Source: a virus | Taxonomy: Duplodnaviria > Caudoviricetes | Length of the DNA stretch: 57,611 nt | Reading direction: 5' to 3' (one strand) | IMG/VR virus record: IMGVR_UViG_3300033407_000017 | Coordinates: 1-57,611 of that record | Shown: positions 38,832-54,835 of the stretch, one piece after another | How positions within the stretch are numbered: position 1 is the first letter of the stretch | Layout: the number at the start of each line of letters is the position of its first letter | Notes under the pieces: model-generated | The model's input: only the letters and a program-made list of their open reading frames with translations | Told to the model about the DNA's origin: nothing | Databases searched by the model: none | Position numbers and translations under genes: made by a program

Positions 38832-38956
38832 TTATTATTGTTGTTCATGCGTGCGAGAGACACAAACCGAGGGCCACTGTATAAATACAGTGTCCGTGTT
38901 GAAAATTTTTGTCGGTCGTTAGTCGTCCGCCTCGCACGCATGAAACACAATAATAA
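38832..38956. repeat. inverted-repeat element A
   Basis: Arms 38832-38857 and 38931-38956 match at 24/26; inner palindrome CACTGTAT-AA-ATACAGTG at 38875-38892. Confidence 0.9.
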
Positions 38957-39079
38957 TAGGGTTCTTGTTTTCAGAAGTAAATTGGTGTTTTGTCCTGTAA
39001 ATAGTGGGTTTTGTATTTCAATGTGGGTATTTCATTGAGTTTTTATTGTCATGAGAGAACCGACTTTTGATCGGAGTTT

Positions 39080-39526
39080 TTGATGTTGGTCGTCGGTGTG
39101 GACCCTGGTGTGACGACAGGTGTGGCGTTTGGAGTTCTTAAAAATGGGCATTTTGCGTTGGACAAGGGTTTCGAGTGTGCGGGTAGTCTTGAAGGCATTT
39201 TGACGCTTTCTCGTGAGATTAAAGGTTTCTTTGGCTCGAATCGTGGTGTTGTCGTTGTTGAGGACTTTCGTTTGCGTGGAGGGCCTGTTGGTACGACGAA
39301 GATAGAAGGACTTGCTCCGGTTGCTGTCGGTGCAATGTTGAAGATGTCGTTGTTCATGTTGAAGTTTGATGTCGCTGGTGGTGTCATGATGCAAACAGCG
39401 AGCCAAGCGAAGACAACCGTGACGAATGAGCGTCTGCGAGCGTTGGGGCTGTGGGTCGTCGGGAGTGAGCACATTCGTGATGCTGTGCGTCATGCTGAGC
39501 TCTGGTGTAGAAAGAATCAACGATAA
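39080..39526 (+). CDS. RuvC-like Holliday junction resolvase
   Basis: VGVDPG.TTG, VVVEDF, H..DA.RH. Confidence 0.8.
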   Translation: MMLVVGVDPGVTTGVAFGVLKNGHFALDKGFECAGSLEGILTLSREIKGFFGSNRGVVVVEDFRLRGGPVGTTKIEGLAPVAVGAMLKMSLFMLKFDVAGGVMMQTASQAKTTVTNERLRALGLWVVGSEHIRDAVRHAELWCRKNQR

Positions 39527-39709
39527 GTGGAAATACTAATGGAATGGAAAGGGGCGAAAATAGGGGGCACACTCGGCTCAGTGTGCAAACTCCCTGGTAG
39601 TTGATTCGTGGTATAGGTCTTTCGGCCCTAGGCGCCCACCTACCCCGGTGGTATGCTCTACTTACGCCGCCGGGGCATACCGGGGGCGGGAACCTAGGAG
39701 GTAGGAGTT

Positions 39710-40267
39710 ATGGCCAAGAAGCCAACCCAGGAAGCGTTGGACCAGGCGTTCGCCATGTGGCAGGGCGGGGGTTCCAACGGTGCCATCATGGAGGCCACGG
39801 GGCTGAACTACAGCCAGATGTGGCTGGACCGCCAGGACCGGACCATGGACGAGAACGGCCGGATCGCAACGCACGACAAGAACGGTCAGGCGTTGCCCGA
39901 CACCGTGGTGGCTGCGGCCATCGCCCGGCGCCGTGCGGCCGACGAGTCGTGGGGCTTGATCGCGGTGCGGTGCCGCCTGCCCGAGAGCCGTGTGCGGCGA
40001 ATCTTCGCCAACGCCACGGGCATCTCGTCGCAGGGGTTGCGCATCGGGCGGGGCGGCCGGTACGTCGCCGATGACCCCCGCTTCTACAGCGGTGCGGACC
40101 GCCCGAAGGTCGGCACCGAACTGGACCCGGGGCGCCCGGTGCTGGAGCAGGTGCCCACGGGCGACGAGAACCCCCGTCGCCTGCCGGTGGTGGCGGAGGC
40201 GCTGGTGCAGGGCACCACGCCCCCGAAGCCTCGGCGCACGCGCAAGGCCACGGCCAAGAAGGCCTAG
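39710..40267 (+). CDS. tandem-HTH protein with basic tail (paralog 1)
   Basis: IMEATGLNYSQ; ESWGLIAVRC.LPESRVRRIF; SQGLRIGRGGR; KPRRTRKATAKKA. Confidence 0.8.
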   Translation: MAKKPTQEALDQAFAMWQGGGSNGAIMEATGLNYSQMWLDRQDRTMDENGRIATHDKNGQALPDTVVAAAIARRRAADESWGLIAVRCRLPESRVRRIFANATGISSQGLRIGRGGRYVADDPRFYSGADRPKVGTELDPGRPVLEQVPTGDENPRRLPVVAEALVQGTTPPKPRRTRKATAKKA

Positions 40268-40343
40268 GCGGGTGATGGTTCCACCCTGGCCCATGGGTCG
40301 GGGTGGTTCCACCACCTACCCAGGTGGAACTAGGAGGTAGAAC

Positions 40344-40745
40344 ATGGCGGTCTATGTGATGGGTGGCACCGTCGGCACGGTGCCCGACGAAGAGGGACGC
40401 CCCGTGGCGTTCCGGGTGGATCGTGACTGCATGGTGCATTCCCGCATTTCGTTACTACCAGTGACGATGGTGGGAACCAACACACCTTCGGTCTTGGCTT
40501 ACGAGAGGGTATCGGTGGATACGATCATCGCCAACTCGTACGAAGAAGCAAGAACATTGCATATGCGGCTCAAGAACACGCCTTTAGGCCCGAAAGGCTT
40601 GTATGCCCAGCCCACTGTGGAGGAGAAGGTGGTCGCCCTGTGGAACACCGGGCACAGCCCGGAGGGGATCGCCATGAAACTGCACGTCCGTGAAGGGCGT
40701 GTGAGGCACATCCTGACGAACCTGGGGTACGTGGGTGGGTGGTAG
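40344..40745 (+). CDS. C-terminal HTH protein
   Basis: VVALWNTGHSPEGIAMKLHVREGRVRHIL; AGGAGGTAG RBS. Confidence 0.7.
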   Translation: MAVYVMGGTVGTVPDEEGRPVAFRVDRDCMVHSRISLLPVTMVGTNTPSVLAYERVSVDTIIANSYEEARTLHMRLKNTPLGPKGLYAQPTVEEKVVALWNTGHSPEGIAMKLHVREGRVRHILTNLGYVGGW

Positions 40746-40790
40746 TTCACCAGGGAGGTAGGGTTCCACGTGGCCCTACCTCCTAGGGCG

Positions 40791-40831
40791 GGAAGGGCGG
40801 TGCTCGGCTTCGGCTGGGTGCCGCCCTTTCC
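40791..40831 (+). terminator. strong hairpin with cUUCGg loop
   Basis: GGAAGGGCGGTGCTCGGC TTCG GCTGGGTGCCGCCCTTTCC. Confidence 0.65.
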
Positions 40832-40844
40832 ATTGTACCCATCC

Positions 40845-40987
40845 GAACCGTAGAACCCATGAACTACCGATGCATAGAACGTGCGAACTAATGAAGCACT
40901 GAACTATGCGAAAGGAAGAACGCTTAGAATCAAATGCTCATTGGTTCTGTTGTTCATTCGATCAGTGCTTCATCTCTTCGGTCGTTC
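40845..40987. repeat. 8-bp-periodic GAAC/GTTC array
   Basis: GAAN about every 8 bp over 40845-40930, then its complement every 8 bp over 40944-40987. Confidence 0.75.
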
Positions 40988-41132
40988 TTTCATGAGCCTT
41001 ATGAACTTAGAATCAATTGAAGGGTCGATCCGAAGATGAAATGAGGGGAGGGGTCCTTACTTTTGCGAACGAAGGAAGGGTGGTGGGGCCTGTTCACCAT
41101 TTTCGATCCCGTTCATATAAAGGAATTCGGAC

Positions 41133-41162
41133 TTGCTTGAAATCATTTCTTAGTGGTACACT
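41133..41162 (+). promoter_or_regulatory. housekeeping-sigma promoter
   Basis: TTGCTT-N18-TACACT with TGG extension. Confidence 0.6.
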
Positions 41163-41209
41163 GATTTCGGTTGGGGCGTACTGTTCCCAAATAGCCCCCG
41201 GAGGTAGAA

Positions 41210-41419
41210 GTGGACGGTTGGGAAGACCTTCAAGACCGTTGGGCTGCCGAGGCCGTGCGTGAACTCATGGAAGGCGACCGCCTGGCTACGCCAGCAGAAG
41301 CTCATTTAGAATGGCACCGTAATGCGGAAGTTCCCCTTGGGCAACCTTGCCCGATGGATGCGTGTGATCCGTACTACGACGAGCCCTACGACGAAGAGAC
41401 ACAGAAGGTAGAGGAATGA
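41210..41419 (+). CDS. hypothetical protein
   Basis: H.EWH......G..CP.DAC motif; GGAGG RBS. Confidence 0.6.
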   Translation: MDGWEDLQDRWAAEAVRELMEGDRLATPAEAHLEWHRNAEVPLGQPCPMDACDPYYDEPYDEETQKVEE

Positions 41420-41461
41420 CCGCATTCGCCGATCACGTCCGTTCGCACAGGGGGTAACAGA

Positions 41462-41791
41462 ATGATCAAGGTGTTCCACAAAAAGAAGCACCAGCCCATC
41501 ACTCCGAACCCGCCATCGATGAACCAGAGGATCCAGGCCCACATCAATCAGGAAGACCCCAACTACCTTCTGGAACTGCCCTTCGGTCTCATGGGCGATG
41601 GCAGTTGGATCTTCTTCGACAAGTACGGGCATTTCTTCCTTCGGTTTGACCCTCCGAACAACCTGTACCTGGAAGATCCAGATGGAGTTCGTGAAGAGAT
41701 TTACCTGGAGCCAGCATGGCTTCACGGTCACCTTGATATCATGAATTACACCATGGAACAGATTTACACCGACCTTCTCAACCACCACTGA
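41462..41791 (+). CDS. hypothetical protein
   Basis: ORF in the early gene run. Confidence 0.55.
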   Translation: MIKVFHKKKHQPITPNPPSMNQRIQAHINQEDPNYLLELPFGLMGDGSWIFFDKYGHFFLRFDPPNNLYLEDPDGVREEIYLEPAWLHGHLDIMNYTMEQIYTDLLNHH

Positions 41792-41806
41792 ACAGGAGGC
41801 AGAAAG

Positions 41807-41989
41807 ATGCCCACAATGGAAACCTCTAACTACAATGTTCAGTTGACCCTAAGTTCTCAGGAAGGATGGGAACTGCCGACAGAAAGTAGAATTGAAGAGA
41901 TGATCAAACAGTTCTTCGTGGCTCACAGAGGGCCGCATGGAGAGAGAATTGACTGCCTCTTCGTAGAAGTGAGCCTTGCAGAACATTGA
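41807..41989 (+). CDS. hypothetical protein
   Basis: AGGAGG RBS. Confidence 0.55.
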   Translation: MPTMETSNYNVQLTLSSQEGWELPTESRIEEMIKQFFVAHRGPHGERIDCLFVEVSLAEH

Positions 41990-42056
41990 TGCCATGAGTG
42001 ACACCATGGAAACGATTTACACCCGGTCTTCTCAACCCAGGGGCAAAGTGAACCTT

Positions 42057-42320
42057 ATGAAGACGACTGTTGTAAACATTCGAACAACCGATGACTACGA
42101 TGTATACATCGGCCGAGGGAGCCGATGGGGGAACCCGTTCAGAATTGGGCAAGATGGGACCAGGGCCGAAGTGATAGAGAAGTACCGCCGCCACTTGTTC
42201 GCAAACCCAGAACTCATGGATGCCGTAGGAACTCTTCGTGGGCAGCGGCTGGGTTGCTTCTGTCACCCGCTTGCCTGCCACGGAGACGTTCTCGCCGCCA
42301 TCGCAGATCGCCCTGACTGA
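42057..42320 (+). CDS. DUF4326 protein
   Basis: YDVYIGRGSRWGNPF, LRG..LGCFC.PL.CHGDVL. Confidence 0.9.
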   Translation: MKTTVVNIRTTDDYDVYIGRGSRWGNPFRIGQDGTRAEVIEKYRRHLFANPELMDAVGTLRGQRLGCFCHPLACHGDVLAAIADRPD

Positions 42321-42341
42321 TAAGGATCTAGGACACATAAC

Positions 42342-42638
42342 ATGAAAGTTGACATTGTTGAAAAGATAGAAAAGGAACTTCTAGAGGAAAGAATCCTCAG
42401 TGATCGCATTGCCGTCTACGAAATGTTAGAGTCTGCGGCGCCTAGTTTTTTTTCTGGGATGTGCCGATACAGTTGTGAATGTATACCGTTGAGCAGGAAC
42501 TGGACGCTAGATAGAGACGACTGTGAACTATGGTGGTATGCGATGACCGATGCTTGGTCTGGCTCTGTCAGAAACGCCCATGAGTTTCCTGACCTATATG
42601 GAACCTGGGCGTACCAAGACTTAAGAGAACCGAGGTAG
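42342..42638 (+). CDS. hypothetical protein
   Basis: ORF in a dense + strand run. Confidence 0.5.
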   Translation: MKVDIVEKIEKELLEERILSDRIAVYEMLESAAPSFFSGMCRYSCECIPLSRNWTLDRDDCELWWYAMTDAWSGSVRNAHEFPDLYGTWAYQDLREPR

Positions 42639-42640
42639 AA

Positions 42641-42829
42641 ATGGTTGATGAAGAGGCCCAGGAAGAAATTGATTTCTGGGTTGAGCACCATAGAAACCCG
42701 ACTAGTCACAAAGAAGGGCTTTGTGACTACTGCTTCGAAGAAGCCCTGGTCAGAGATCTTGGAGAAGAATCTTTGACTGAATACTACAGAGAAGTGCCCC
42801 CGCTTTTTCACACCAATGAAATAAAATAG
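42641..42829 (+). CDS. small protein with H..G.CDYC motif
   Basis: GAGGT RBS. Confidence 0.5.
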   Translation: MVDEEAQEEIDFWVEHHRNPTSHKEGLCDYCFEEALVRDLGEESLTEYYREVPPLFHTNEIK

Positions 42830-42838
42830 GAGGTAGGA

Positions 42839-43123
42839 ATGCAATTCCTTAAGGTGTATCGCAAGAACGACAACGACATTTACCTGAATGCAGACTTGAT
42901 CTCAGAACTTTACATTCGTAACATCAGCGATGGTGTTGCCATCTCCGCCAGGATGGCAGACGTGAAAGGGTCTTGTGAACACGTGAAGTCTTTCATTGGA
43001 GACCAGAACGAAGAGATGAAGTTGGCAGGTAACTACCTCTCGAAGATCATTGACATTCTTTCCAGAGGAAAGTCTGTGGAGTGCTGTGAAAGAACCGTGC
43101 GTGAATTCAGGGCGGCGTGGTAG
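42839..43123 (+). CDS. hypothetical protein
   Basis: IYLN.D.I motif; AGGAGGTAG RBS. Confidence 0.6.
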   Translation: MQFLKVYRKNDNDIYLNADLISELYIRNISDGVAISARMADVKGSCEHVKSFIGDQNEEMKLAGNYLSKIIDILSRGKSVECCERTVREFRAAW

Positions 43124-43132
43124 GTTGTTTCC

Positions 43133-43531
43133 ATGAGGGCAATAGGTTTCACAGGATCAAGAACAGACCGTTCTCCAGACCAAATGAAGCGACTACAGGC
43201 TTTGCTTCTCAAACTGATAGGGCTAGACGAACTTGAGAAGTTTCATCACGGAGACTGTGTAGGCGCTGATGCTCAGGCTCACCGTATCGCCAGGCAATGC
43301 GGCCTTTATATTATTCGTCATCCCCCAATGGAACCCGCAGGCAGGGCGTTCTGTGACTTTGATGAAGACAGGCCTCCAAAGCCGTTCTTGGTCAGAAACA
43401 AAGAGGTCGTTCGTGAGTCCGAGGCTATAATCGCCATGCCAGACGGACCAGAAAGACTTAGAAGTGGAACGTGGTCTACGGTTCGCTATGCACATTCGTT
43501 GGAAAGAGAAGTTTATATCATCGATCCATAG
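43133..43531 (+). CDS. SLOG-superfamily (YspA/DprA-like) protein
   Basis: IGFTGSR, HHGDCVGAD, RN..VV, RSGTW.TVRYA. Confidence 0.8.
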   Translation: MRAIGFTGSRTDRSPDQMKRLQALLLKLIGLDELEKFHHGDCVGADAQAHRIARQCGLYIIRHPPMEPAGRAFCDFDEDRPPKPFLVRNKEVVRESEAIIAMPDGPERLRSGTWSTVRYAHSLEREVYIIDP

Positions 43532-43540
43532 GGACGCATC

Positions 43541-43783
43541 ATGGCAACACGTCTACTTCATATCCCAGCGTGTGATCTCAGGGCTGGTGACATTGTTCGA
43601 ATAGACAAGGGTTTATTCGACAAATCCTTCACGTCTGACTGGAAGAGGGTGTGCGAGATCAGTATGGTTGGTTATGGAAACGAGAACTTTCCATCCTGCC
43701 AACTTGTCGGCATTAACCTTGATGGTGAAATCTTTTTCCTTCGATTCCAGGACCAAGTAGTGATCAGACAGGAGACAGAATGA
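43541..43783 (+). CDS. small beta-barrel-like protein
   Basis: PACDLRAGDIV; ATGA-coupled to the next gene. Confidence 0.55.
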   Translation: MATRLLHIPACDLRAGDIVRIDKGLFDKSFTSDWKRVCEISMVGYGNENFPSCQLVGINLDGEIFFLRFQDQVVIRQETE

Positions 43784-44037
43784 AAGCAATGGAGGAATTG
43801 CAGCGTGAAGTTTCAATGATGACAAGTCCGTGGAGATGGCCTCGGTGGCCGATCCTCTGCATGAAGCGATCGCCGATGGAGGAATCGAATTTTGGGTGTT
43901 TGGCTGAGATCGACGGTGAAGTAGCACCAACGATCTACCCACTAGTTCCTGGAGGATTCTTCAAGTACGATTTCGGCAAGCCAATGAAGTTCATGGACTT
44001 CGAGGCAATCTACGACGCTGGTTGGAGAGTTGATTGA
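43780..44037 (+). CDS. hypothetical protein
   Basis: WP.WP.L.MKR ... AGWRVD; AGGAG RBS. Confidence 0.65.
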   Translation: MKAMEELQREVSMMTSPWRWPRWPILCMKRSPMEESNFGCLAEIDGEVAPTIYPLVPGGFFKYDFGKPMKFMDFEAIYDAGWRVD

Positions 44038-44315
44038 TGGAACTTTTCGGACTTTTCGGACTTTTCGGATTCATCGTTGAAGGAGAAGGACCATTCCCAA
44101 CCGAGATGCTTTGTTTCGACCAATGTTGGCCTGCTCTGGAAGGGGACGCCCTCAAGATCCCGTATTCTCCGCCCCGGTCTGGGTTGCAAACCCTGAAAAG
44201 CAGAAAGAGAAGAACAATCAAACTAATCGGCTTGCACACACCATCCGCAGAGCGGTGGGCTGAGTTCGGGTGGAGGGTTTCTAATGTGATTTTCCCCCAG
44301 AGAAAGGTAGTATGA
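44034..44315 (+). CDS. hypothetical protein
   Basis: F.VEG.GPFP.EML.FD.CWP ... P..ERW..FGWRV. Confidence 0.65.
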   Translation: MMELFGLFGLFGFIVEGEGPFPTEMLCFDQCWPALEGDALKIPYSPPRSGLQTLKSRKRRTIKLIGLHTPSAERWAEFGWRVSNVIFPQRKVV

Positions 44316-44737
44316 ACATGAGCGCCGATAACTTCTGGCTTATCAGAAGAGACGGATCAAGATACGTTGTAAGCATGGAGTTCGCAAGTTCAGACGAACT
44401 TGAAGATCCGGAAGACAAAGATCCAAGATTCGATACTCTTGGAGAAGCGGTAGATTGGTGTACCAAGCAGGATCAGGAGGACCCCTATGGCGGAACAGAG
44501 TATGGAATTCAGTTTGGCCCTGGGGTTTCGTTCGAGAATGACGCCAGTGAATTCACTCAGTATGTTCTTGTCCTCACTCTTCCCGCAGAATGTTTACCCG
44601 ATAGTGGAATTAACCGAGTGTGTGATCTACTGAACGGATTGATCAGTGGCAAGGAATCTCCCGCCACGAGCGATGACCATGCGATCGTGTGTGTGAATGC
44701 TGTTGTTCGCCCCCTGAGCGAAGTCATGAACGCCTGA
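44312..44737 (+). CDS. hypothetical protein
   Basis: MSADN ... TEYGI; ATGA-coupled. Confidence 0.6.
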   Translation: MNMSADNFWLIRRDGSRYVVSMEFASSDELEDPEDKDPRFDTLGEAVDWCTKQDQEDPYGGTEYGIQFGPGVSFENDASEFTQYVLVLTLPAECLPDSGINRVCDLLNGLISGKESPATSDDHAIVCVNAVVRPLSEVMNA

Positions 44738-44988
44738 GCATTGCAAGAAATGTATGCCTTGGCGTACTATTGTGTTCGACGGGAGGTAGCCAGTTGAAAC
44801 CAGATCAGCAACCAAATGAACAATCGCAGGAAGAAAAGATCGTCACCACTCGTAAAACTTGCATAGAACTAACATGCCGAAGACACTACAAGGAACATTT
44901 CTACGGAGACGAAGACTGTTCGTACGTATATACGGAAGAAGACGGAATTCAGAGGAAGCATCAGCCAAAATAGAATGAAAGGAATAAA

Positions 44989-45180
44989 GTGGAAATCTTT
45001 ATCGTGATGAGAAAATCTAGAGACGGGTCTGCTCGGCCTGGTCACTGTTCAGAAAAGTTCTCTGTTATTGCCGCATATCAAAACAGGGGAGATGCAGAAA
45101 ACCACGCGCAGGAAGCGCAGGTAGCCAGTCCCGGGAACGAAGAGGAATGGTACGTACAGACCGCTGGAATTCTTCGCTAG
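44989..45180 (+). CDS. hypothetical protein
   Basis: AAGGA RBS; VIAAY.....AE pattern. Confidence 0.55.
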   Translation: MEIFIVMRKSRDGSARPGHCSEKFSVIAAYQNRGDAENHAQEAQVASPGNEEEWYVQTAGILR

Positions 45181-45201
45181 TGTCCAGAACTCAAAGGAAA
45201 G

Positions 45202-45230
45202 TTGTCAGAACCTACGCCACGGCGTAGGGT
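45202..45230 (+). promoter_or_regulatory. promoter with overlapping palindromic operator
   Basis: TTGTCA-N17-TAGGGT; CCTACGCC-AC-GGCGTAGG at 45211-45228. Confidence 0.7.
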
Positions 45231-45317
45231 GGTGGTGTCGGGCGGCGGCGGGGAAGTGCCCCCACCACAGAACCGTCGCCACCCGGCAAGAACTCAACCG
45301 ACAGGAAGGTAGCAGAA

Positions 45318-45506
45318 ATGGCACCGAAGAAGGTCACGCTGGAGTTTGCTCTGGAGCGTGAGACGAAGGGTACCCGTAGGTTCCAGGAACAAGGTGTGAA
45401 GGATGGCGAGCGTGCCGTGGTTGGCACGCTGTACGTCCTCAAGCCCACGCTGGAAACCCTCGGGAACCCCACGACGCTCAAGGTCACGATCGAACCCGGC
45501 GACTAG
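45318..45506 (+). CDS. small beta-rich protein with its own promoter
   Basis: ERETKGT.RF.E, VGTLYV.K..L, P..LKVTI. Confidence 0.7.
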   Translation: MAPKKVTLEFALERETKGTRRFQEQGVKDGERAVVGTLYVLKPTLETLGNPTTLKVTIEPGD

Positions 45507-45756
45507 TCGGATTCAGTTTACCCGGAGCCAACCCTGTGAATTCATGGGTAGTATCCCCATAACAGAAGAAGGGCTAGAAGGGTGCCAACGCTCGCAGGCC
45601 CCTTCACTCATTGACATTGGAGAACTGTGTGCTGCTCGTCTCCCTCTGGGGCGTAGTTGTTGACGCTAGGGTACATCCCATAGGTGATCCCTACTCACCG
45701 AACGGGTGCGGGCAGCACAGAGTTCTCTAAGAGTTCTCTAACCGGAAGGAGGTAGC

Positions 45757-45975
45757 ATGTTGGATTTCTTGAAGGACTGCATGATCGGAGTCCACGCCGC
45801 CAGGGTCAAGATTGCAAATTCGTTCTCAGTGCCAGAGATCATGGCGACACAATACGTGCCGGATGTCCTTGGTAAGGAGATGTTGGTCTTGGCGAACGGA
45901 ACCACCAAGATGATCGGCGAGTGGAGGGCTGGGGTGCCACCCACCCCGATTCTTCTGAAGAGGAAGTACCGATGA
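45757..45975 (+). CDS. hypothetical protein
   Basis: AGGAGGTAGC ATG. Confidence 0.55.
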   Translation: MLDFLKDCMIGVHAARVKIANSFSVPEIMATQYVPDVLGKEMLVLANGTTKMIGEWRAGVPPTPILLKRKYR

Positions 45976-46157
45976 AGCATGAGATGAGAATCCGTGAAGA
46001 GAACCCGCTGGGACGTGCAGGCTTCAGACCTTCCGCTGGAAACGATCTTCGTGTGCGATGCATTTGTGGAAGGTGGGAGGACAAGGCGGGTAGTGAGAAG
46101 GATGCTCTTGCTGCGTTTAGCATCCATCTCAACCAGGTCAAGCGAGGCAAGGCATGA
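45972..46157 (+). CDS. small putative Zn-binding protein
   Basis: H ... CICG.W ... A....H; ATGA-coupled. Confidence 0.55.
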   Translation: MKHEMRIREENPLGRAGFRPSAGNDLRVRCICGRWEDKAGSEKDALAAFSIHLNQVKRGKA

Positions 46158-46447
46158 TCGTTGACTACTACACCCACATCAAACTTGAGTTCAAGAAGGA
46201 GTACCCTTCTGCAGAAGAGATGGAAAAACTGATTGCAGAACGACTTGCCGGAGATCTGAAAAAGGGTCTCCGGCTTGTTCGTGTCCACGGCACGAAGGTT
46301 GCGGGGATTTCTGATGATTAGATCATTCCTTAATACGCCGGTTGCTACGTTAGTTCTTGGATCGTTCTTGTTCGGAGCTGTATTCGCTATCGTTAAGAAC
46401 ATTCTTCAATACAATGAGAAATACAAACAAATGGAGGAGTAGATAGA

Positions 46448-46714
46448 ATGGGAAGATCACACGTAGACGATCCCCCGGAGTTTCCAGACAAGCCTTGGCC
46501 TGGCCCTGAGGGCCCTGAGATCCCTCAAGAGGCTCTGAATATCGGAGACCCCATTGCAATACAAGCGTTCGAGGTTATTGTCGGAACACCCAGGACTAGG
46601 AGTCCAGAACAGGTAGCAAACGAGATCGCAAGAAGGGTTCGTGGACTGAAAAAGGAAAAGGAAAAGAAGAACAAGAAGAAGAAAGATAAGAGCAAGAAGA
46701 AGGAGAGGTCATAG
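46448..46714 (+). CDS. hypothetical protein with Lys-rich tail
   Basis: GGAGGAG RBS; KKEKEKKNKKKKDKSKKK. Confidence 0.55.
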   Translation: MGRSHVDDPPEFPDKPWPGPEGPEIPQEALNIGDPIAIQAFEVIVGTPRTRSPEQVANEIARRVRGLKKEKEKKNKKKKDKSKKKERS

Positions 46715-47115: not shown

Positions 47116-47733
47116 ATGAAGGCACCTGAAGAGTCTGTTCTCAAGAAGGCGTTGGCGCTCCACCAGAAGGGCGCCAAGATGAAGGAAATTCTTGAGGAGA
47201 CAGGTCTGAACTATTCTCAGGCTTGGCTTTACATCACGGATGCCGAACTTCCTCAGTCACAGCGAGTTTCCCAGGCGAACAGAACTCCTGCTACGGTCAG
47301 GAAGTTGCGTGAAGAGGGAGATTCGTGGGGGCTGATCAGTGTTAAGTTCGGATATCTTGAGTTCTCAGAGTCCAAGATCCGATCCATGTACCAGGAGTTC
47401 ACAGGCAAGAGAAGTCAAGGCTTGAGGATCGGTCGTGGTGGGCGCTGGTATGGGGACGAGCCTCGGCTCTACAACGGAGTTCGTCGTCGGAGCGGTGTCA
47501 GAATCGCAAAGGGTGTGACGAAGGGTCACGTTCTTTCGGTAGCGCCTACTCTGCCTGATGATGTTGCCGAGATCACTGAAGACGGGGTCAAGAAGACCCC
47601 CGGTGGAACTCGTGCAGCGGCCAAGGCTACTGGCGTGGTCAAGGCTGGAAGGGCGAAGAAGGCTACGAAAACTACAAAGACGGTCCGGAAGGCTAAGGCA
47701 GCGGCAACGACCAATAAGGATCCGTTCGAATAG
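47116..47733 (+). CDS. tandem-HTH protein with histone-like tail (paralog 2)
   Basis: ILEETGLNYSQ; DSWGLISVK; SQGLRIGRGGR; AKKATKTTKTVRKAK. Confidence 0.82.
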   Translation: MKAPEESVLKKALALHQKGAKMKEILEETGLNYSQAWLYITDAELPQSQRVSQANRTPATVRKLREEGDSWGLISVKFGYLEFSESKIRSMYQEFTGKRSQGLRIGRGGRWYGDEPRLYNGVRRRSGVRIAKGVTKGHVLSVAPTLPDDVAEITEDGVKKTPGGTRAAAKATGVVKAGRAKKATKTTKTVRKAKAAATTNKDPFE

Positions 47734-47763
47734 ATCCCCGACACGCTACCTCCTGTCGGGAAC

Positions 47764-47796
47764 GGGGGAGGGGGTTTCGGCCCTCTCCCCCACTTC
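47764..47796 (+). terminator. GC-rich hairpin, probable terminator
   Basis: GGGGGAGGGGGT TTCG GCCCTCTCCCCC; weak U tract. Confidence 0.55.
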
Positions 47797-48027
47797 TAGA
47801 AGGGAACTTGTTGTGAATAGGTTGCGAGCGGCCCTTGTATTGGACTTCTTGCTGACAGCCCCGTTGGGGTTGGCCGGGTTCTCATTGGAATTTTTCATTG
47901 CTGTTGATTCTACCGGGTCTTCACCACCGTTCATGTTCATCCAGATTTTTGGTCCTGGAAACAACTCAGTGCTTAGTCTTCCTGACCCAACCCGCCATGT
48001 ATAGAACTAGAGAGCGTTGTCAGAGCG

Positions 48028-48057
48028 TTGTCAGAACGTGCTTCTATGAGATAATGT
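48028..48057 (+). promoter_or_regulatory. promoter preceded by an 11-bp tandem repeat
   Basis: TTGTCA-N18-TAATGT; (AGAGCGTTGTC)x2 at 48011-48032. Confidence 0.55.
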
Positions 48058-48084
48058 CTTGGTAGGCTACTATAGGAGGTAGAA

Positions 48085-48969
48085 GTGGAAAGAGGCGATG
48101 TTCTTAGAAAGGTGCAAGCCCTTCTAGACAAGGCAGACGCAACTTCTTTCCCGGAGGAAGCGGACGCCTTGAGGCAGAAGGCCGACGACATGATGTTGGC
48201 CTGGGCCATTCAGGAACATGAACTTGACCAGGCACGTCCGGTTCATGAGCGACGTAAGCCTGGAAAGCGTATTGTTCATGTATGCGGGCCAAACTCCGTG
48301 ATCAGAGAACAACTTGCTGATCTTCTTGCTGCCATTTCACTTCACTCAAGGTGCAGAATTGTATTCCATGGTTTAGACAGGAGGTTCAAAGACCGCGAAC
48401 TGACTTCAACAGTCGTTGGTTATGAATCAGACCTGGACTATGTTGAGATGCTCTTCACTAGTCTCCGAGTTCAGATGGCAACCAAACTTGAACCAAAGCC
48501 TGACCCAAACCTCTCCTTTGAAGACAACCTCGTCATTATGAAGGAAGCAGGAATGAAATGGCAGAGGATCCATGCGTTGCTCTGCCCTGATACTCCCTGG
48601 GAGCGTCGGCACGGCGTTCGATACACCGGGATCTATACGAACTTCTGCAAGCGTCATGAAAAGTCAAGGATGTATACGGCCCCGGGAACGTATTCAAAGA
48701 ACTTTGCTCTCGGCTTCGTAAGTGAGATAAATCGCAGACTGTCGTTGATCAGGAAGCAGCAAGAGTCCGACCATGGACCGATGGATATTGTTCTATACGA
48801 CGCCGCTAACGCTGTGAACCAAGCGTTCCAGGATGCTTTCCCGAACCTTCGTACGGCAGCGATCTCGAAATATAAGATGGATGGCGCAGCATTCAATCAA
48901 GGAGTGGGCGCCGGGTCCAGGGCTGACCTTGGACAAACGAGGATGGCTCCGAGAAGGGAACTAGGGTGA
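48085..48969 (+). CDS. DUF2786-domain protein
   Basis: LRKVQALL.KA..T.FPEEA.A...KA..MM..WAI; VGY.SDL..VEMLFTSL..Q; G.RADLG. Confidence 0.85.
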   Translation: MERGDVLRKVQALLDKADATSFPEEADALRQKADDMMLAWAIQEHELDQARPVHERRKPGKRIVHVCGPNSVIREQLADLLAAISLHSRCRIVFHGLDRRFKDRELTSTVVGYESDLDYVEMLFTSLRVQMATKLEPKPDPNLSFEDNLVIMKEAGMKWQRIHALLCPDTPWERRHGVRYTGIYTNFCKRHEKSRMYTAPGTYSKNFALGFVSEINRRLSLIRKQQESDHGPMDIVLYDAANAVNQAFQDAFPNLRTAAISKYKMDGAAFNQGVGAGSRADLGQTRMAPRRELG

Positions 48970-49090
48970 TGAAATCTTGGTGGTTGCTTCTTTCATTAGG
49001 GGCTTTGATTGGTGCTGTAATGCTCAACTCATTGCTTCTAGCATTCCTTTGTGGAGTTTGGGTTGTCTTTGCTCACCCAGAGGGGAAAAG

Positions 49091-49426
49091 ATGAAGCATG
49101 TTCCAGCGATCAAGAGGTCTCCTCCTGAAGAAACTATGTTCAGAAAGAAATGGGGGCATACCGGGAAATGGACGAGGTTCCTAGTTGATTGTTATGAAAG
49201 TCCTGAAGAGTGGATGAGAACACCTTGGCCGGTGTCCCAAATATCCAGATCAGCGATTCAGGCAGCAAGTGACCTTCGTCGTGGGATTCTAATGAAAGTT
49301 CAGAAAAAGATGGATGGCACCTGGGATGCTGTTCATGCGGTTGATACTGATGACAATGGGCTTGAACACTACTATGTTTTCGCAGTTTTTTATCCAAGCA
49401 AGAACTACCGGAAACGGAAGAAATAG
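49091..49426 (+). CDS. hypothetical protein
   Basis: GAGGGG RBS before ATG 49091. Confidence 0.5.
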   Translation: MKHVPAIKRSPPEETMFRKKWGHTGKWTRFLVDCYESPEEWMRTPWPVSQISRSAIQAASDLRRGILMKVQKKMDGTWDAVHAVDTDDNGLEHYYVFAVFYPSKNYRKRKK

Positions 49427-49528
49427 ATGAACTTATTAGAGTCCGAGTTATTTTGGTATGTATTGTGTGTTGGAATTGTTATTCTAATTGTTGTTGATGA
49501 GTTTCGTAAGAGGAGCAGGAGGAGGTAG
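49427..49528 (+). CDS. 33-aa membrane peptide (not in ORF track)
   Basis: MNLLESELFWYVLCVGIVILIVVDEFRKRSRRR. Confidence 0.5.
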   Translation: MNLLESELFWYVLCVGIVILIVVDEFRKRSRRR

Positions 49529-49638
49529 TGTTGCGTGAAGATCCACTTGACCCCGCTAGGGGTTGCATGATAGGAATTCTTTGTGGTGTCATGGTGTGGG
49601 TATTGGTTTCGTATCTCCTGTACCTTCTTGTGAAATGA
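49528..49638 (+). CDS. 36-aa membrane peptide (not in ORF track)
   Basis: MLREDPLDPARGCMIGILCGVMVWVLVSYLLYLLVK; AGGAGG RBS. Confidence 0.55.
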   Translation: MLREDPLDPARGCMIGILCGVMVWVLVSYLLYLLVK

Positions 49639-49646
49639 GGGTCATA

Positions 49647-49832
49647 ATGAGCAACCTTCCTCCAGGAGTAACGGGGAATGAAGATATATTCGGACCTTTC
49701 GCAGAGAAAGAAGAGGAACTATACTGTGAAGAATGTGAAAAGAAAGTTCTTTGCCTGGTCCAGTATTTCAATAGCTCTCGCGTGGTGGTGTGTCCAGAAG
49801 ATCATGAGTGGGAAGAAGACAGACCAGAATAA
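49647..49832 (+). CDS. small Zn-ribbon protein
   Basis: MSNLPPGVTG; CEEC ... CP..HEW. Confidence 0.65.
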   Translation: MSNLPPGVTGNEDIFGPFAEKEEELYCEECEKKVLCLVQYFNSSRVVVCPEDHEWEEDRPE

Positions 49833-50364
49833 TAAGGACCAGGATAAGCGGCCATATCAATACGACACAGATTTTCCTCAGTTCACTCCAATGATAAACA
49901 GGAAACCTCCAAATGATCAGGTCGGGAAACTTGGTTCTGGTTGGGCCGGGCTTTGGATCGAAGAAGACAAAGAGGGAGGCTCTATTATTCTGGTAGAGAA
50001 GGAGGGGGCAGAGCATTTTTGGGAATACCACACCAATCTTGCTATGAGAGAAGCGTGGGTGTCTTTTGAGAAGTCTCTTGAGACCAAGAAACCAAAGCCT
50101 GGAGATTTCGTTCTTGTCCATAAGTCTGGACCCTGGGGAGAATGGGACGTTTATCAGGTGGGCGACACCGAGGAAGAAGTAAGGGCAGTAGCCGTTGACT
50201 TCCCAAGTCTTTATCTAGGGGTACAATTCTGTATTGAGAGAAAGGTTAGATTTGGAGAGTTAGAGTGGGATGTCTGGTTCCTTGACACTGACGGCGCCTA
50301 CTATCTCTTGGATGAAAAAGATGGTTCTCCACCACCGGACCATGTGGCGACGAACGGAGAATGA
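49804..50364 (+). CDS. hypothetical protein
   Basis: Long acidic ORF in the run. Confidence 0.55.
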   Translation: MSGKKTDQNNKDQDKRPYQYDTDFPQFTPMINRKPPNDQVGKLGSGWAGLWIEEDKEGGSIILVEKEGAEHFWEYHTNLAMREAWVSFEKSLETKKPKPGDFVLVHKSGPWGEWDVYQVGDTEEEVRAVAVDFPSLYLGVQFCIERKVRFGELEWDVWFLDTDGAYYLLDEKDGSPPPDHVATNGE

Positions 50365-50454
50365 ACCAAACGAAACTAGTCAACGACGACTCAATCCGCT
50401 AGTATGACGACGCACCCCAAACCGGGGAGTAGAACCAAAGGAGATGATGGAAGA

Positions 50455-50967
50455 ATGGCAACAGATCAGAAGACGATTGATAAGATCGTCTCTCTTCGCA
50501 ACAAGGAAAGTACCTGGGCTGATATTGCAGAGGCAGTTGATCTTCCCCAGGGTAAGTGCATGTTCCTGTACGACCAGGCCACAGTTTCTTCAAGTGAGCG
50601 AATCACTGGAAAGACTGAAGACGACCTGAAGCGAAAGATTGCTAAGGGTCGTCAGGAAGGTTTGTCATGGGGTGTGCTCTCCGCCCGATCCGGCAAGTCT
50701 GAAGGCTATTGCCGAAAGGCTTTCGAAGAGGTTACGAACGAGTCTGCTCGTGGCAGTCGGGTTGGCAAGGGCGGTCGCTACCCGGAAGGCGAAGCGCCTG
50801 CAAAGGCCGCGAAGTCAACGAAGAAGGCTGCAAAGAAGACTGCAAAGGCTTCAAAGACGGTCAAGAAGGCTTCCGGAAAGGCTCCTGCCAAGAAAGCCAC
50901 GAAGGCTACCAAGGCAATGAAGGCCAAGAAGTCCACGAAGAAGACTTCAAAGAAGGAGGCTGCCTAA
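50455..50967 (+). CDS. tandem-HTH protein with long H1-like tail (paralog 3)
   Basis: TWADIAEAVDL; LSWGVLSARSG.SE; GSRVGKGGRY; APAKAAKSTKKAAKK... Confidence 0.85.
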   Translation: MATDQKTIDKIVSLRNKESTWADIAEAVDLPQGKCMFLYDQATVSSSERITGKTEDDLKRKIAKGRQEGLSWGVLSARSGKSEGYCRKAFEEVTNESARGSRVGKGGRYPEGEAPAKAAKSTKKAAKKTAKASKTVKKASGKAPAKKATKATKAMKAKKSTKKTSKKEAA

Positions 50968-51266
50968 GCCTCGGATTACGAGAACAAGATAATAAAGTTC
51001 AAAGGAAGAAGAACCGGCGTGGTGCAGACCGTGAAGGTTGGCAAGGTCCTCAGGTTTTCCAGGGAAAGAGGGGAACTTGTATTTCAAGACCGAGCAACTG
51101 GTGGCACCAGAACTATTGCAACAGGAACGATAATGGAAGTAGAGTAGCGTGCCGGTTTGGCCGGGCGGTGACGTCCAAAGGGCGTCCCAGGGGCCAGCGT
51201 AAGGCCTCGGGAACCGGAGGGTGGCGCTAGGCTTACCCGTAAAGTTCCCGAGGCCTTACACGCTAA

Positions 51267-51599
51267 ATGAACAAGGAGATAGAAAAAATGGAAAGATCAG
51301 TGGTAGACTATCCAGTAGAATTTCTGAAGTGTCGTGGATTTCATCACAGTTGGGACGACTCTTCAGGTCCTGCTAATCCACCACGTCTCCAGTTTGGAAC
51401 CCACTTTTGGTGGTTCTGTTCCGACTGTACGATGTATCGCCTTGACGTTGTTTCCCGTGACACCGGGGAACTTCTTTGGCGTACCTATATCCAGCCAAAG
51501 AACTACAAGGCAAAGGGTCCGATCACAAAAAGTGATTGTAGAAAGCGTTATGTTCGTCTTGGTAATAAGAGAAGGTCTAGAAAGAAGTATGCAGCATGA
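51267..51599 (+). CDS. putative Zn-binding phage protein
   Basis: L.CR...H.W, C..C.M.R.D, Y..P..Y; start may be 51288. Confidence 0.65.
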   Translation: MNKEIEKMERSVVDYPVEFLKCRGFHHSWDDSSGPANPPRLQFGTHFWWFCSDCTMYRLDVVSRDTGELLWRTYIQPKNYKAKGPITKSDCRKRYVRLGNKRRSRKKYAA

Positions 51600-51621
51600 A
51601 AGAACTTAAAGTAAAGGATAT

Positions 51622-51990
51622 ATGATTTTGAGGAAGCCACTTTTTGACTTTGGTCACGTCCAAGTGTTCGGAGATATAAAGTTCATAAGAACCAAAGGCT
51701 CTGGCTGGTTCGAAGAAGATCCTCCATTCTCACATATGCGAAGGATGGATGCTGTACGGAACTCGGTGGCTTTGGGACACTTGTTGTGTCTTACGTCTGG
51801 ACCATATCTAACAGATGAGAATGGAAAACCTAAGTGGGGGTTCATGGCACAATGTACGTGCGGTAGATTTAGTGCCAAAGGCACGCGGGAAGAGTCTATT
51901 AGATTCATGATAGAAGCAGACAGGTGTTCTCTTCCAGAGTGTGCCTTGGAGAAGTTTAGAGAAACAAATAAACGAATGTCTTCTTATTAG
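51622..51990 (+). CDS. hypothetical protein
   Basis: H ... AQCTCG; AAGGA RBS. Confidence 0.5.
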   Translation: MILRKPLFDFGHVQVFGDIKFIRTKGSGWFEEDPPFSHMRRMDAVRNSVALGHLLCLTSGPYLTDENGKPKWGFMAQCTCGRFSAKGTREESIRFMIEADRCSLPECALEKFRETNKRMSSY

Positions 51991-52001
51991 GGATCAAGTT
52001 C

Positions 52002-53906
52002 ATGATCGAGGAAGACGTGATCAAACTCGAGGCCACGATTGGTCCTTCTGGAAAAACTATCGACGTTCGTTTTGAGTATGATCCATATCTTGTTTTCACC
52101 ATCAAAACAATTCCAGGAGCAAGATTCGTCAATGCGGCAAAGGGCGGGCCACTTTGGAGGCTACCGTTAGAACTTAGTATTGGGAAGGATCTTAGAAAGG
52201 CTTTTGGAAAAGCATTTGTTCCGGACCTGGCACTCAAAAAGTGGGCGATGAGAAAAGCAGAAACAAGAACAAAACTAAGAGAGATTGCTCACGCAGAGAA
52301 TGTGGAACTAATAGTTCTTCCTGATGCTCTTCCAGAACTTTATCGTGCGCTCCATGTTGGTCCGATCGGTAAAGCAATGCCAGAGGAAGAGCTTGAAGAG
52401 ACGTTCTCCTCAAAAGAGGCCTCATACCAAACCGCTGATGTTGCTTTCATGGCACACGCTGAGTTTGCAATCAACTCAAATCAACCTGGGCTCGGGAAAA
52501 CCCTAGAGGCAATCGCCACCCCATTCGAAATGGGAATAGAAAACGGGCCAAAACTCGTGATCGCCCCGGTTACTTCACTGGAAGCAACATGGGTCACAGA
52601 ACTCTCTAGATGGCAGTATCAAGATATTATTCTATGCTCTGGAGGAAAAGAACGCAGACAAGAAGCAATTGATGCTGCTTTAGAATACGTCAAAGATGGA
52701 GAACCTTTTTGGTTTGTGGTAAATCCGGCAACTGTTCAATATCAGCAAATTAAGGAACTTGATCCCGTTAGTGGAGAACCAACGGGTAAGCGGCAGTTGT
52801 GGCTGAAACATCCAGAGATTCATGAAATAGACTGGAACTATATTGTTCTAGATGAGTTTCATCAGTTCGGTCTTGGAAATCCAGACACCCTTACGGCTCG
52901 TGGGTTGTTCGAGCTCAAAGCACAAAAGAAAGTTGCAATGTCTGGGACTCCAATTCAAGGAAAGCCAATCAAACTATTCGGTGTGTTGAAGTTTGGTCAT
53001 CCAGAACAATATACTTCCAGGTGGGCATTTGCAGAACAATGGTTGGTGATTGATTCTAATCATTGGGGAAAAAAGATCGGTGATGTTCGCAAAGAGCGTG
53101 AAGATGAATTCTATGAGTTTCTTGGTCAATGTATGATCAGGAGAGAAAAGGCAACTGTTCTTCCATGGCTTCCTCCTAAGGATCACATTGACCTATGGGT
53201 GTCCATGGGTCCGAAGCAAAGCAAACAATACGAAGCCTTTGCTGCCGACGCTGAGATTCGAATTGATGAACTACAACTGACAGCGAACGGGATTCTTGCA
53301 GAATATACTCGTTTGAAGCAATTTGCTATTGCTGTTCAGAGAATTGAGCCAGTGGATGATCCACCCTATGCCAAGCCATTCCCAACTGAGGAATCTTGTA
53401 AACTAGATGCTCTTGAAGAACTTCTTCTTGAGAAAGGTATTCTTGGGGACAACGTCGATGAGAATGCCCAGGCTCTGATTTTTAGCCAGTTCACCCAGGT
53501 TGTCAATATGGTTGAACAGTGGCTCAAAAATAAGCATGTAAGAACTATGAAGATTACCGGAGAAGTTACTGGCAGAAAGCGTGGTGAAGCACAGGCAATA
53601 TTCCAGTCTGAGAAAGTAGATAGGCCTCAGGTTGGGATTCTCAACACCACCGCTGGCGGCGTGAGCATCACGCTTGACAACGCTGATACCGTAATCTTCC
53701 TGGATGAAACATGGGTTCCAGACCACCAAGAACAGGCAGAAGATAGAGCACACCGTGGTAGTAAGATTCATCAAGTTACCTGTTATTACATCAGAACTAA
53801 GGGTACGATAGAAGAATATATTCATCGCAGAGTAACCGAGAAAGACAATATCAATAAAAGAATTCTAGACTTTAGAGGCGAGGGGCTCCGTGCAACCGGG
53901 GATTGA
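52002..53906 (+). CDS. SNF2-family helicase
   Basis: QPGLGKT, LDEFH, MSGTP, LIFSQF, QAEDRAHR. Confidence 0.93.
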   Translation: MIEEDVIKLEATIGPSGKTIDVRFEYDPYLVFTIKTIPGARFVNAAKGGPLWRLPLELSIGKDLRKAFGKAFVPDLALKKWAMRKAETRTKLREIAHAENVELIVLPDALPELYRALHVGPIGKAMPEEELEETFSSKEASYQTADVAFMAHAEFAINSNQPGLGKTLEAIATPFEMGIENGPKLVIAPVTSLEATWVTELSRWQYQDIILCSGGKERRQEAIDAALEYVKDGEPFWFVVNPATVQYQQIKELDPVSGEPTGKRQLWLKHPEIHEIDWNYIVLDEFHQFGLGNPDTLTARGLFELKAQKKVAMSGTPIQGKPIKLFGVLKFGHPEQYTSRWAFAEQWLVIDSNHWGKKIGDVRKEREDEFYEFLGQCMIRREKATVLPWLPPKDHIDLWVSMGPKQSKQYEAFAADAEIRIDELQLTANGILAEYTRLKQFAIAVQRIEPVDDPPYAKPFPTEESCKLDALEELLLEKGILGDNVDENAQALIFSQFTQVVNMVEQWLKNKHVRTMKITGEVTGRKRGEAQAIFQSEKVDRPQVGILNTTAGGVSITLDNADTVIFLDETWVPDHQEQAEDRAHRGSKIHQVTCYYIRTKGTIEEYIHRRVTEKDNINKRILDFRGEGLRATGD

Positions 53907-54378
53907 CGAAAATCTTCTCAATGATATTCTTGAAAGTGAGTGGGGAAGGGCAACCTTTGTCGACTTTCAGAAGAAGGGATTGTGCGGAGAGATCAAGTCT
54001 TCTGGCAGGAGATGCACAAACAAAATCATTGAACGGTTTGAACTAGACCCAGATCTTATTACCAATAAGGTTTCTGTCGGAGCGTGTGGAGTTCATGTTT
54101 CTGACGTTAAAGCAAGAGTTAAGTTATTCTCTGAAAAAAGATGGCGTAAAGACGAAATACAATGGCAAGTCCAAGAGGCTGAAAGAATCCTGCCTATTCT
54201 TGAAAGTCTTGGGTTGCATTTTGAGATGGACTATCGTCAGTTTTACGTAAAATTCACAAATATCGGACATCTCATTGCAAAGATGATTGAACTTGGAGTT
54301 ATAACTGAGGAAGAAATAGAACAGAAATTCTTAGAGGAGAAGGAGCGACAAAAGGAGGGGGAGGCGGGATCCGCATGA
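53890..54378 (+). CDS. hypothetical protein with Cys/His motif
   Basis: C......G.RC ... CGVH. Confidence 0.55.
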   Translation: MQPGIDENLLNDILESEWGRATFVDFQKKGLCGEIKSSGRRCTNKIIERFELDPDLITNKVSVGACGVHVSDVKARVKLFSEKRWRKDEIQWQVQEAERILPILESLGLHFEMDYRQFYVKFTNIGHLIAKMIELGVITEEEIEQKFLEEKERQKEGEAGSA

Positions 54379-54707
54379 GAATTGACCATATGATACTTGC
54401 AGAAGTTAAACTTCCAAATGGAGCAATCGTTTCTTTTGCATGGCCTAAGGTTTGGACGATTGCCATTTGTGCGAGCGATGTCGCCAATGCATTTTTCCAA
54501 AAAGAAAGGAAACTAGGAAAAGCATATTCACTCAGGGCAGTTTTTGTTGATCAGAGTGAAAGAGACCTTGGCCCGAAGGAAAGATCAGTTGGTACAGTTT
54601 TGTATTCTGGTGGAAAAGTGGCATACTATGAGCTTATTGATATTACTGACGTTGATGCCATTCAAAGAGTTTTAGCAGAAGACGAAAAGAATATTTCTTC
54701 TTTTTAG
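54375..54707 (+). CDS. hypothetical protein
   Basis: ATGA-coupled; GGAGG RBS. Confidence 0.55.
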   Translation: MRIDHMILAEVKLPNGAIVSFAWPKVWTIAICASDVANAFFQKERKLGKAYSLRAVFVDQSERDLGPKERSVGTVLYSGGKVAYYELIDITDVDAIQRVLAEDEKNISSF

Positions 54708-54713
54708 AAGTCC

Positions 54714-54835
54714 ATTATTATTGTGTTTCATACGCGCGAGGCGAGACGAGACTTGGCGCAAAACGAGATGGATGAACCATGAGAGAGTGGTGCATTATCT
54801 CCCTCACGCGCTCGCACATGAAACACAATAATAAT
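54714..54835. repeat. inverted-repeat element B
   Basis: Perfect 18-bp arms ATTATTATTGTGTTTCAT (54714-54731) and ATGAAACACAATAATAAT (54818-54835). Confidence 0.9.

Follow-up and report, generated by a model that had tools for sequence, protein, structure and literature searches.

In lambdoid phages, which are temperate, the operators OL and OR are two clusters of 17-bp near-palindromes, arranged as tandem triplets 2.4 kb apart and bound by a known repressor. Among the actinophages, the conserved inverted repeats (CIRs) of the Streptomyces phage phiC31 and the stoperators and extended start-associated sequences (ESAS) of cluster A and K mycobacteriophages are 13-17-bp motifs that occur in many copies per genome. 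The Bacillus phage SPP1 carries oriL and oriR, in which a known initiator binds direct repeats (oriL lies within the gene for that initiator), and the nut sites of lambda and put sites of HK022 modify RNA polymerase. A study of the halovirus HF2 (PMC8707807) describes intergenic repeats with AT-rich motifs that were shown to be promoters. The present study concerns two inverted-repeat elements, A and B, in the IMG/VR virus record IMGVR_UViG_3300033407_000017, the whole of which was analyzed (the window, 57,611 bases; genome G000, the discovery genome) and which is classed as linear and approximately 95% complete. To our knowledge, regulation and replication are almost unstudied in soil actinophages that have their own DnaE-type polymerase, and we know of no cultured close relative of the G000 lineage. 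The four arms of A and B may well all bind a single sequence-specific factor through which transcription is controlled where gene modules meet, a reading that we favor while stopping just short of calling it probable.

The original prediction, made from the letters of the window, described two related inverted-repeat elements around unrelated spacers, and both parts of this description stood: four arms were found at A and B, and the likeness between the two spacers was equaled in 306 of 500 shuffles. Its coordinates for A (38832-38956) were reproduced, whereas the arms of B proved slightly longer than stated and occupy 54707-54842. The parts of the two elements, to which no strand is assigned, are as follows.

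38832-38857: left arm of element A, with an AT-rich outer part and a GC-rich inner core at ~38843-38861
38858-38930: spacer of element A, 73 nt, with a near-perfect 18-bp palindrome at 38876-38893
38931-38965: right arm of element A, which pairs with the left arm (26 nt) as far as 38956; GC core at ~38927-38945
54707-54736: left arm of element B, with the family core word ACGCGCGAGG at 54732-54741
54737-54812: spacer of element B, 76 nt
54813-54842: right arm of element B, with a core at ~54800-54822 whose GC part is 2 nt shorter (a deletion) than in the other arms

The arms of A are 26 nt long and 92% complementary and those of B 30 nt long and 87% complementary. A 21-mer that had been reported as exact at 38939-38959 and 54817-54837 was found at both places, and it occurs a third time, with 2 mismatches, on the minus strand at 54712-54732; in 100 shuffles the 21-mer had no match at all. 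The reported 28/30 match between the right arm of A and the left arm of B likewise held, and this likeness, which extends to 38965 in A, reaches 38 nt at 87%; these two arms are inverted copies of one another, and the right arms of A and B are direct copies. Aligned outward, the arms read TCCGCCTCGCACGC-ATGAAACACAATAATAATAGGGTTCT or near, with long AT-rich outer arms that extend the GC-rich cores. A profile scan of G000 found no site of at least 10 bits besides the four arms (shuffles gave 0-4 such sites), with three arms scoring 33-36 bits and the left arm of A 14.8 bits, a value that falls within the shuffle range, partly from the mis-registration of its row in the profile. An exhaustive scan (22-nt arms, at most 3 mismatches, 20-200-nt spacers) returned four elements in the window, namely A, B, and two repeats with unrelated arms at 45617-45730 and 52831-53021. 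Both are wide; the first of these is intergenic, and its arms reach 40 nt at 73%, and the second lies inside the helicase gene (52832-53020, with 24-nt arms at 92% and a 141-nt spacer).

Like OL and OR, A and B are two related site clusters that would lie at operon starts, are lineage-specific in sequence, and would, as proposed here, both be read by one factor; unlike them, they are composed of inverted arms of 26-40 nt that stand 73-76 nt apart, their loci are separated by 15.8 kb, and no repressor or integrase was found. With the CIRs, stoperators, and ESAS, taken as these are generally described, they share the character of actinophage intergenic repeats that are actual or supposed regulator sites near gene starts, but they differ in their four copies at two loci, their longer arms, and their sequence. 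The origins of SPP1 likewise place the same repeated sites beside an AT-rich stretch at two distant loci, whereas here the sites are inverted, no initiator was recognized, and skew tests were null. In the account of HF2, repeated intergenic sequences with AT-rich motifs also stand at the starts of gene blocks; however, HF2 is an archaeal virus, and the account gives its repeats as two classes in many copies and mentions no long-spaced inverted pairs. Miniature inverted-repeat transposable elements (MITEs) are similar in size and in their terminal inverted repeats, but A and B are not scattered, have no target duplication, differ in their interiors, and are syntenic. The long terminal repeats of T5 and SPO1 are of similar size to the A-to-B segment and enclose early genes as it does; here, in contrast, depth was not doubled over most of the segment, no contig ended at either element, and B is placed centrally in the replication block. 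Our literature searches turned up no account of these elements.

Locus searches with single proteins (the RuvC-like protein and the helicase) returned no relatives, which were found with alignment queries: an alignment of helicase homologues gave 75 IMG/VR loci (30-57% identity, 889 kb), some of them redundant, and ten whole relatives (G001 and G003-G011) were anchored by tblastn, resulting in a set of 11 genomes with G000. Synteny is good in these relatives, in which the helicase, kinase, DnaE, ThyX, RuvC-like protein, and the proteins p294 and p297 recur, and G006, G007, and G009 share TerL, portal, and head protein with G000 at 45-62%. The Microbacterium phage Krampus (L198; DnaE ~48%) has all its genes rightward and so was not comparable. 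A seed-based scan of the 75 loci found 21 long-armed, wide-spaced inverted repeats, many of them directly after the helicase stop or ~1.2 kb further. With a repeat defined by arms of at least 18 nt that are at least 85% complementary and a spacer of 30-200 nt, 5 of the 11 whole genomes have one in the 2 kb that follow the helicase, where the genome-wide density would give 0.64 (P ~5e-4), and 4 of 10 do so when the discovery genome is left out; the helicases of the relatives that share the layout with G000 are 37-57% identical. Further post-helicase repeats occur in the short loci L004, L030, the L054 group, L060, L071, and L074, the last of which is the nearest helicase relative (57%) and has inverted GC cores around an AT-rich centre, placed within a 540-nt gap 1.7 kb after the helicase.

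The arms that follow the helicase recur at a second locus in G000, G001, G003, and G005, and their sequence differs between genomes. G003 has two elements whose four arms have AAAAATAAAAATGTCA and a GC-rich inner part in common; one begins at the base right after the helicase gene, and the second is found 13.3 kb further upstream, flanked by a leftward open reading frame (ORF) and by a rightward one that the p297 homologue follows. The perfect 19-nt arms after the helicase of G005 recur just upstream of the RuvC-like homologue, before RuvC and the late genes. The core GCGCGTACACGCGC of G001 forms one repeat after the helicase and another at a strand divergence and is also found as a cluster between the RuvC-like and p297 homologues, and three sites in G004, one of them between RuvC and p297, share a core word only. 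G007 and G010 each have a repeat beside the RuvC-like homologue, with no second locus found, and no pair was found in G006, G008, G009, or G011. Partner sites are placed at the RuvC-like gene and strand divergence in G000 and G007 and at a strand switch in G003, G001, and G010. The motif search proposed with the original prediction gave four arms in the genome itself and the same layout at the matching positions of relatives. The conserved feature is the placement of the sites, one following the helicase and the other adjoining the RuvC-like gene or the start of the late operon. The idea that the elements bracket the early region is true of G000 but does not hold as a conserved feature, because the two sites of G005, whose conserved genes are all on one strand, bracket the replication genes instead; this shows the bracketing in G000 to be a by-product of two independently positioned sites.

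A GC-rich inner word, ~TACGCGCGAGG, is common across lineages, and the outer arm sequence is specific to each. The G000 arms carry it as TTTCATACGCGCGAGG (left arm of B) and TTTCATGCGTGCGAGG (right arm of A, reverse complement), and the inner arm part resembles a word near TCCTACGCGCGAGG in G001, G004, G008, and G010; in G001 the word is also found outside paired arms. Presence of 10- and 11-mers across genomes is swamped by codon-biased words. Because the word was picked after the fact and its spread as a 10-mer was unremarkable, its position was tested on other data. The 75 loci contain 146 kb of sequence in the 2 kb that follow the helicase, where the exact 9-mer ACGCGCGAG occurred 19 times; their remaining 743 kb also gave 19 occurrences. 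In 64 non-redundant p297 loci (of 80), the 155 kb upstream held 22 copies and the 224 kb downstream 5, and nine of the 22 upstream matches were just 5' of the p297 ORF. The long AT-rich arms of G000 elaborate, in a lineage-specific manner, a shorter core pair that is family-wide.

Short palindromes stand at the centers of the A-like elements (38876-38893 in the window, ~47940-47960 in G003, and ~58630-58645 in G007; CACTGTATAAATACAGTG, TCACTTTCTAGAAAGTGA, and TAGTATAATACTA) and are absent from the B-like ones; they could be a second binding site. The idea that the arms start leaderless ORFs, with an ATG in every arm, was rejected, as the left arm of B has no inward ATG and in G003 the ATG directly adjoins the AT block. 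Likenesses to parS and NrdR-box half-sites and to a LexA-like palindrome were post hoc and extended to half-sites only, and were dropped.

G000 has a siphovirus gene set (PHROGs and Pfam). Its late genes, among them those for TerL, portal, major head protein, tape measure, and lysis, run leftward (-) from 38950 down to 7269, and a rightward block, which occupies 39080 to the right end and, in continuation, positions 1-7225, encodes the SNF2-family helicase (52002-53906), polynucleotide kinase, DnaE-type polymerase, WhiB, and ThyX. Element A separates the leftward late genes from the rightward genes at the late/early divergence where it had been placed from the outset, and B lies 800 nt past the helicase stop within the rightward block. 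The features beside the elements that bear on their function are as follows.

39080-39526, plus strand: RuvC-like resolvase gene (phrog_1981), the first rightward gene after A, 123 nt from A
52002-53906, plus strand: SNF2-family helicase gene, which anchors the position of B-like elements in relatives
37004-37897, minus strand: p297 (phrog_3678), a conserved late-operon protein with an invariant Cys/His pattern, candidate binder
54887-54953, plus strand: very stable, branched, GC-rich hairpin that separates B from the gene starting at 54982, -53.1 kcal/mol, z -5.9

The RuvC-like homologue adjoins an A-like element in several relatives. The hairpin at 54887-54953 has the word GCGAGG in both arms and no T run, and stable hairpins without T runs follow A as well: two strong GC-rich ones lie at 40748-40845, after the third rightward gene, and are followed by a wide inverted repeat (40876-40988) before the next gene. 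From these hairpins and this repeat, we conclude that the 'early region' is probably several transcription units.

A and B are quite possibly two copies of a symmetric cis-acting module in which GC-rich cores face one another across a less GC-rich center of variable sequence. The arms are alike between loci within a genome and differ between genomes, and for this reason we favor a factor that reads sequence over a bare hairpin; sites of operator type are favored because they sit where transcription units should begin. One sequence-specific DNA-binding factor would read all four arms; it would come from the host or be a conserved phage protein, with the zinc-ribbon-like p297 as the leading candidate. 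The late operon and the RuvC/early operon, which start divergently, would be controlled from A, and B would govern entry to the post-helicase block of polynucleotide kinase, DnaE polymerase, WhiB, and ThyX. The operator-type sites would flank a center that bears the promoter, for example as two operators that clamp it. The sites coincide with probable transcription-unit starts, at the divergent junction in the case of A and, in relatives, at strand switches, at the front of the late operon, and after a terminator; in G004, next after the helicase come a classic terminator and then a palindrome of the core word, an order of terminator and then control site. In the 1.1 kb scanned around A, the only sigma-70-like sites were ones with the -10 hexamer inside the arms, and the right arm of B has one too, bringing the count to three of the four G000 arms, for a consensus that fits actinobacterial promoters poorly. 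Candidate regulators, and candidates only, are p297, the helix-turn-helix (HTH)-like p187, WhiB, and p186. The 187-aa p187 (50404-50967, plus strand) shows a weak match to an HTH, ends in a long Lys/Ala-rich tail, as actinobacterial nucleoid proteins do, and is conserved in G003, G006, G007, G009, and G011. The 186-aa p186 (36129-36689, minus strand) is encoded next to TerL on its upstream side and weakly matches sigma-70 region 4 (E = 1.5e-4) and ECF sigma factors (E = 7e-4). Both matches fail the cut-offs, and 0 of 10 relatives have a homologue; p186 may be a small-terminase HTH protein or a phage sigma factor.

Several results weigh against control by such a factor. Sigma-70-like sites were scarce in the relatives' elements (1 site in 11 elements), and across the whole rightward block 21 were found against 13.4 +/- 3.4 in shuffles, which is weakly above expectation; the hairpin between B and the next gene is also awkward for a simple promoter. 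Neither p297 nor p294 showed an informative fold or family, and no binder was identified: the predicted model of p297 was poor (predicted local distance difference test, pLDDT, 60.5) and gave generic long-helix matches only (best Z 9.1), with no match in a PDB profile search, and that of p294 (pLDDT 77) gave no Foldseek match at E <=0.001 and nothing useful in a PDB profile search. In the phyletic pattern of 63 G000 proteins, none tracked the architecture. The relatives closest in structural genes (G006, G007, and G009) have no B-like repeat, and the arm spacing of 37-150 nt has no conserved helical phase, which disfavors a fixed protein bridge. With regard to the core word, it was chosen after G000, G001, and G003 had been viewed, its occurrence as a bare 10-mer in 6 of 11 genomes is matched by 4831 10-mers, the helicase loci in which its position was counted are partly redundant, and long-armed repeats were not enriched upstream of p297 (7 in 155 kb vs 7 in 256 kb).

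The symmetric GC cores around a more AT-rich center, which are clear in G004 (62946-63075), L074, and G001, bear also on replication, since the two elements could be paired origins in which inverted initiator or helicase-loading sites flank a meltable center, with one origin adjoining the replication genes and the other placed where early and late genes meet. Arms common to two loci and a copy that always lies beside replication genes fit this idea, which had been raised in the original prediction and was kept as a rival, but the skew tests lent it no positive support and we consider it unlikely. Repeated sites next to an AT-rich stretch, as seen in these three, are not specific to origins; GC skew made no turn at B in G000 or at either G005 element, a weak argument given that phage skew mostly follows transcription; and no initiator or primase was recognized in the PHROGs and Pfam scans, p294 being conserved but uninformative in fold. 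Some relatives have three sites, one of them directly before the late operon, and conservation of a core word across such distant relatives is less expected for fast-evolving pairs of initiator and iteron. A broader proposal, which we judge improbable in its entirety, is that the elements are undescribed symmetric sites, origin and promoter in one, common to a large group of soil actinophages. A conserved zinc-ribbon-like phage protein (p297 or another) would bind the inward-facing GC cores and open the center, the start of replication would be coupled to the early-to-late transcription switch at two or three fixed places per genome, and the protein could bridge A and B so that the early region is held in a closed DNA loop.

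In A and B alike, either strand folds at -53 to -60 kcal/mol (z -6.2 to -8.2), with 0 of 200 shuffles as good, which is what would be seen if the arms acted in the transcript, pairing as a long leader or intercistronic hairpin that stabilizes the mRNA, is cut by RNase III, or works as nut and put sites do. The latter are likewise two related copies of lineage-specific sequence, and the inward promoter-like sites of G000, if real, would start transcripts inside an arm with a 5'-terminal stem. Nevertheless, pairing by itself needs no sharing of sequence between A and B, three of the four arm mismatches of B are true mismatches on the transcribed plus strand and G-U only on the minus strand, and the two mismatches of A are not compensated. 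Together with the occurrence of the core word outside paired arms in G001 and the lack of any Rfam family match at gathering and permissive thresholds, these points make a role at the RNA level quite unlikely, and we continue to prefer sites read in DNA by a binding factor.

The size of the elements (125-136 bp) and their terminal inverted repeats are MITE-like, and the inverted relation of the right arm of A to the left arm of B, with the direct relation of the two right arms, makes recombination conceivable; A and B could thus be an insertion present twice or the targets for inversion or excision of the 15.8-kb segment. The scattered copies that would mark a MITE were sought and only four arms were found in the genome, no direct repeat flanks the outer ends of A or B as a target duplication would, and the internal sequences are unrelated. 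The absence of a visible transposase or recombinase was borne out, with no transposase, integrase, or site-specific recombinase among the selected ORFs scanned (92 with PHROGs and 62 with Pfam; ~5% of the genome is absent from the record), and the neighbor of A is a RuvC-like junction resolvase rather than a site-specific recombinase. An exact 20-mer scan of a viral contig collection gave 0 matches. A 19-mer had 74 exact matches in JGI metagenomes and one genome per prokaryote species (185,579 species), all of them single copies, with 0 in an actinobacterium and 0 with the GC-rich inner arm or a partner arm; we judged these to be chance, and a MITE or host-derived repeat is unlikely because the outside matches are single and have neither inner nor partner arm. 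No alternative junction at A or B was seen in the contigs of four runs, though contigs drop rare variants, and the positions are syntenic in relatives. The suggestion of recombination sites was accordingly not upheld, and the mobile or recombining element is largely refuted and, in our estimation, exceedingly improbable.

The sequencing evidence is composed of contigs with one mean depth each. In the probable source run, contigs span A (contig 38597-42709) and B (42739-56606) without a difference, a joint, or a listed loose end, and no contig end or listed loose end falls at either element; the other three runs have no listed cover at A or B. Contig mean depth was 17.3 for 38597-42709, 10.5 for 42739-56606, and 11.1-12.4 outside (11.1 in the late region), so the twofold depth that would mark a long terminal repeat is missing over most of the A-to-B segment (10.5 vs 11.1). 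Because contigs cross both elements and the depth of 42739-56606 equals that outside, A and B as the boundaries of an SPO1- or T5-like terminal repeat, one of the explanations first offered, are disfavored, and in relatives assembled as circles the counterparts of A and B are internal. We regard as very unlikely the wider possibility that the elements are packaging or terminus signals, with A in a cos or pac region read by the terminase or A and B as the ends of a long terminal repeat. It is consistent with the A-like or third sites just upstream of a late operon with HNH, p297 (faint small-terminase leads), and TerL, and with the 1.6x depth of the contig that starts near A, but B and its counterparts, which follow the helicase, are remote from the packaging genes, and a contig break at each end of the 1.6x segment would fit a module shared with a co-occurring phage better. 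Sharing of the RuvC/early module with such a phage is the simplest explanation of the depth of 17.3 against 10.5-11.1 in its neighbors; a short terminal repeat starting near A is another possible source.

Between two leftward ORFs near A, at 38590-38626 and just upstream of an ATG at 38596, five tandem TGGTCAT heptamers were observed, a unit that we take to be a rotation of a cyanobacterial short tandemly repeated repetitive (STRR) heptamer. Heptamer arrays are common to hundreds of unrelated contigs in all four soil runs (bin depth 496, 225, 41, and 45, vs ~10, 1, 1, and 1 elsewhere), and the loose ends show other heptamers too. Directly after B, the block at 55000-57611 has 58-66% G+C against 49% G+C for the genome and many small ORFs with no family match, and may be a recently acquired module.

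The protein matches of G000 are to phages of Streptomyces, Gordonia, Mycobacterium, Microbacterium, and Arthrobacter (33-48% identity), and on account of these matches to actinophage proteins and of WhiB the host is likely an actinobacterium. A blastn search of 38000-40000 against cultured phages gave no match, and a tRNA scan found none. The DnaE-like polymerase is a single 1086-aa ORF in G000, and in the nearest cultured phages (Krampus and others) it is annotated as two adjacent genes or is interrupted (HNH, in Wollypog). The record starts within the polynucleotide-kinase gene (window 1-417) and a helicase identical to that of G000 is encoded on a separate 65,020-base contig, from which we conclude that several kb (roughly 7) are probably absent between the two ends of the record; extra arm copies could lie in the absent part.

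If the arms of A and B are indeed control sites for one DNA-binding factor, they would provide a short DNA bait with which to find the binding protein, a module-boundary marker for the annotation of metagenomic phages, and operator pairs or origins that could serve as control parts in actinobacterial genetics. They would also represent a cis-element that has kept its position and its core word across phages whose helicases are just 37-57% identical.

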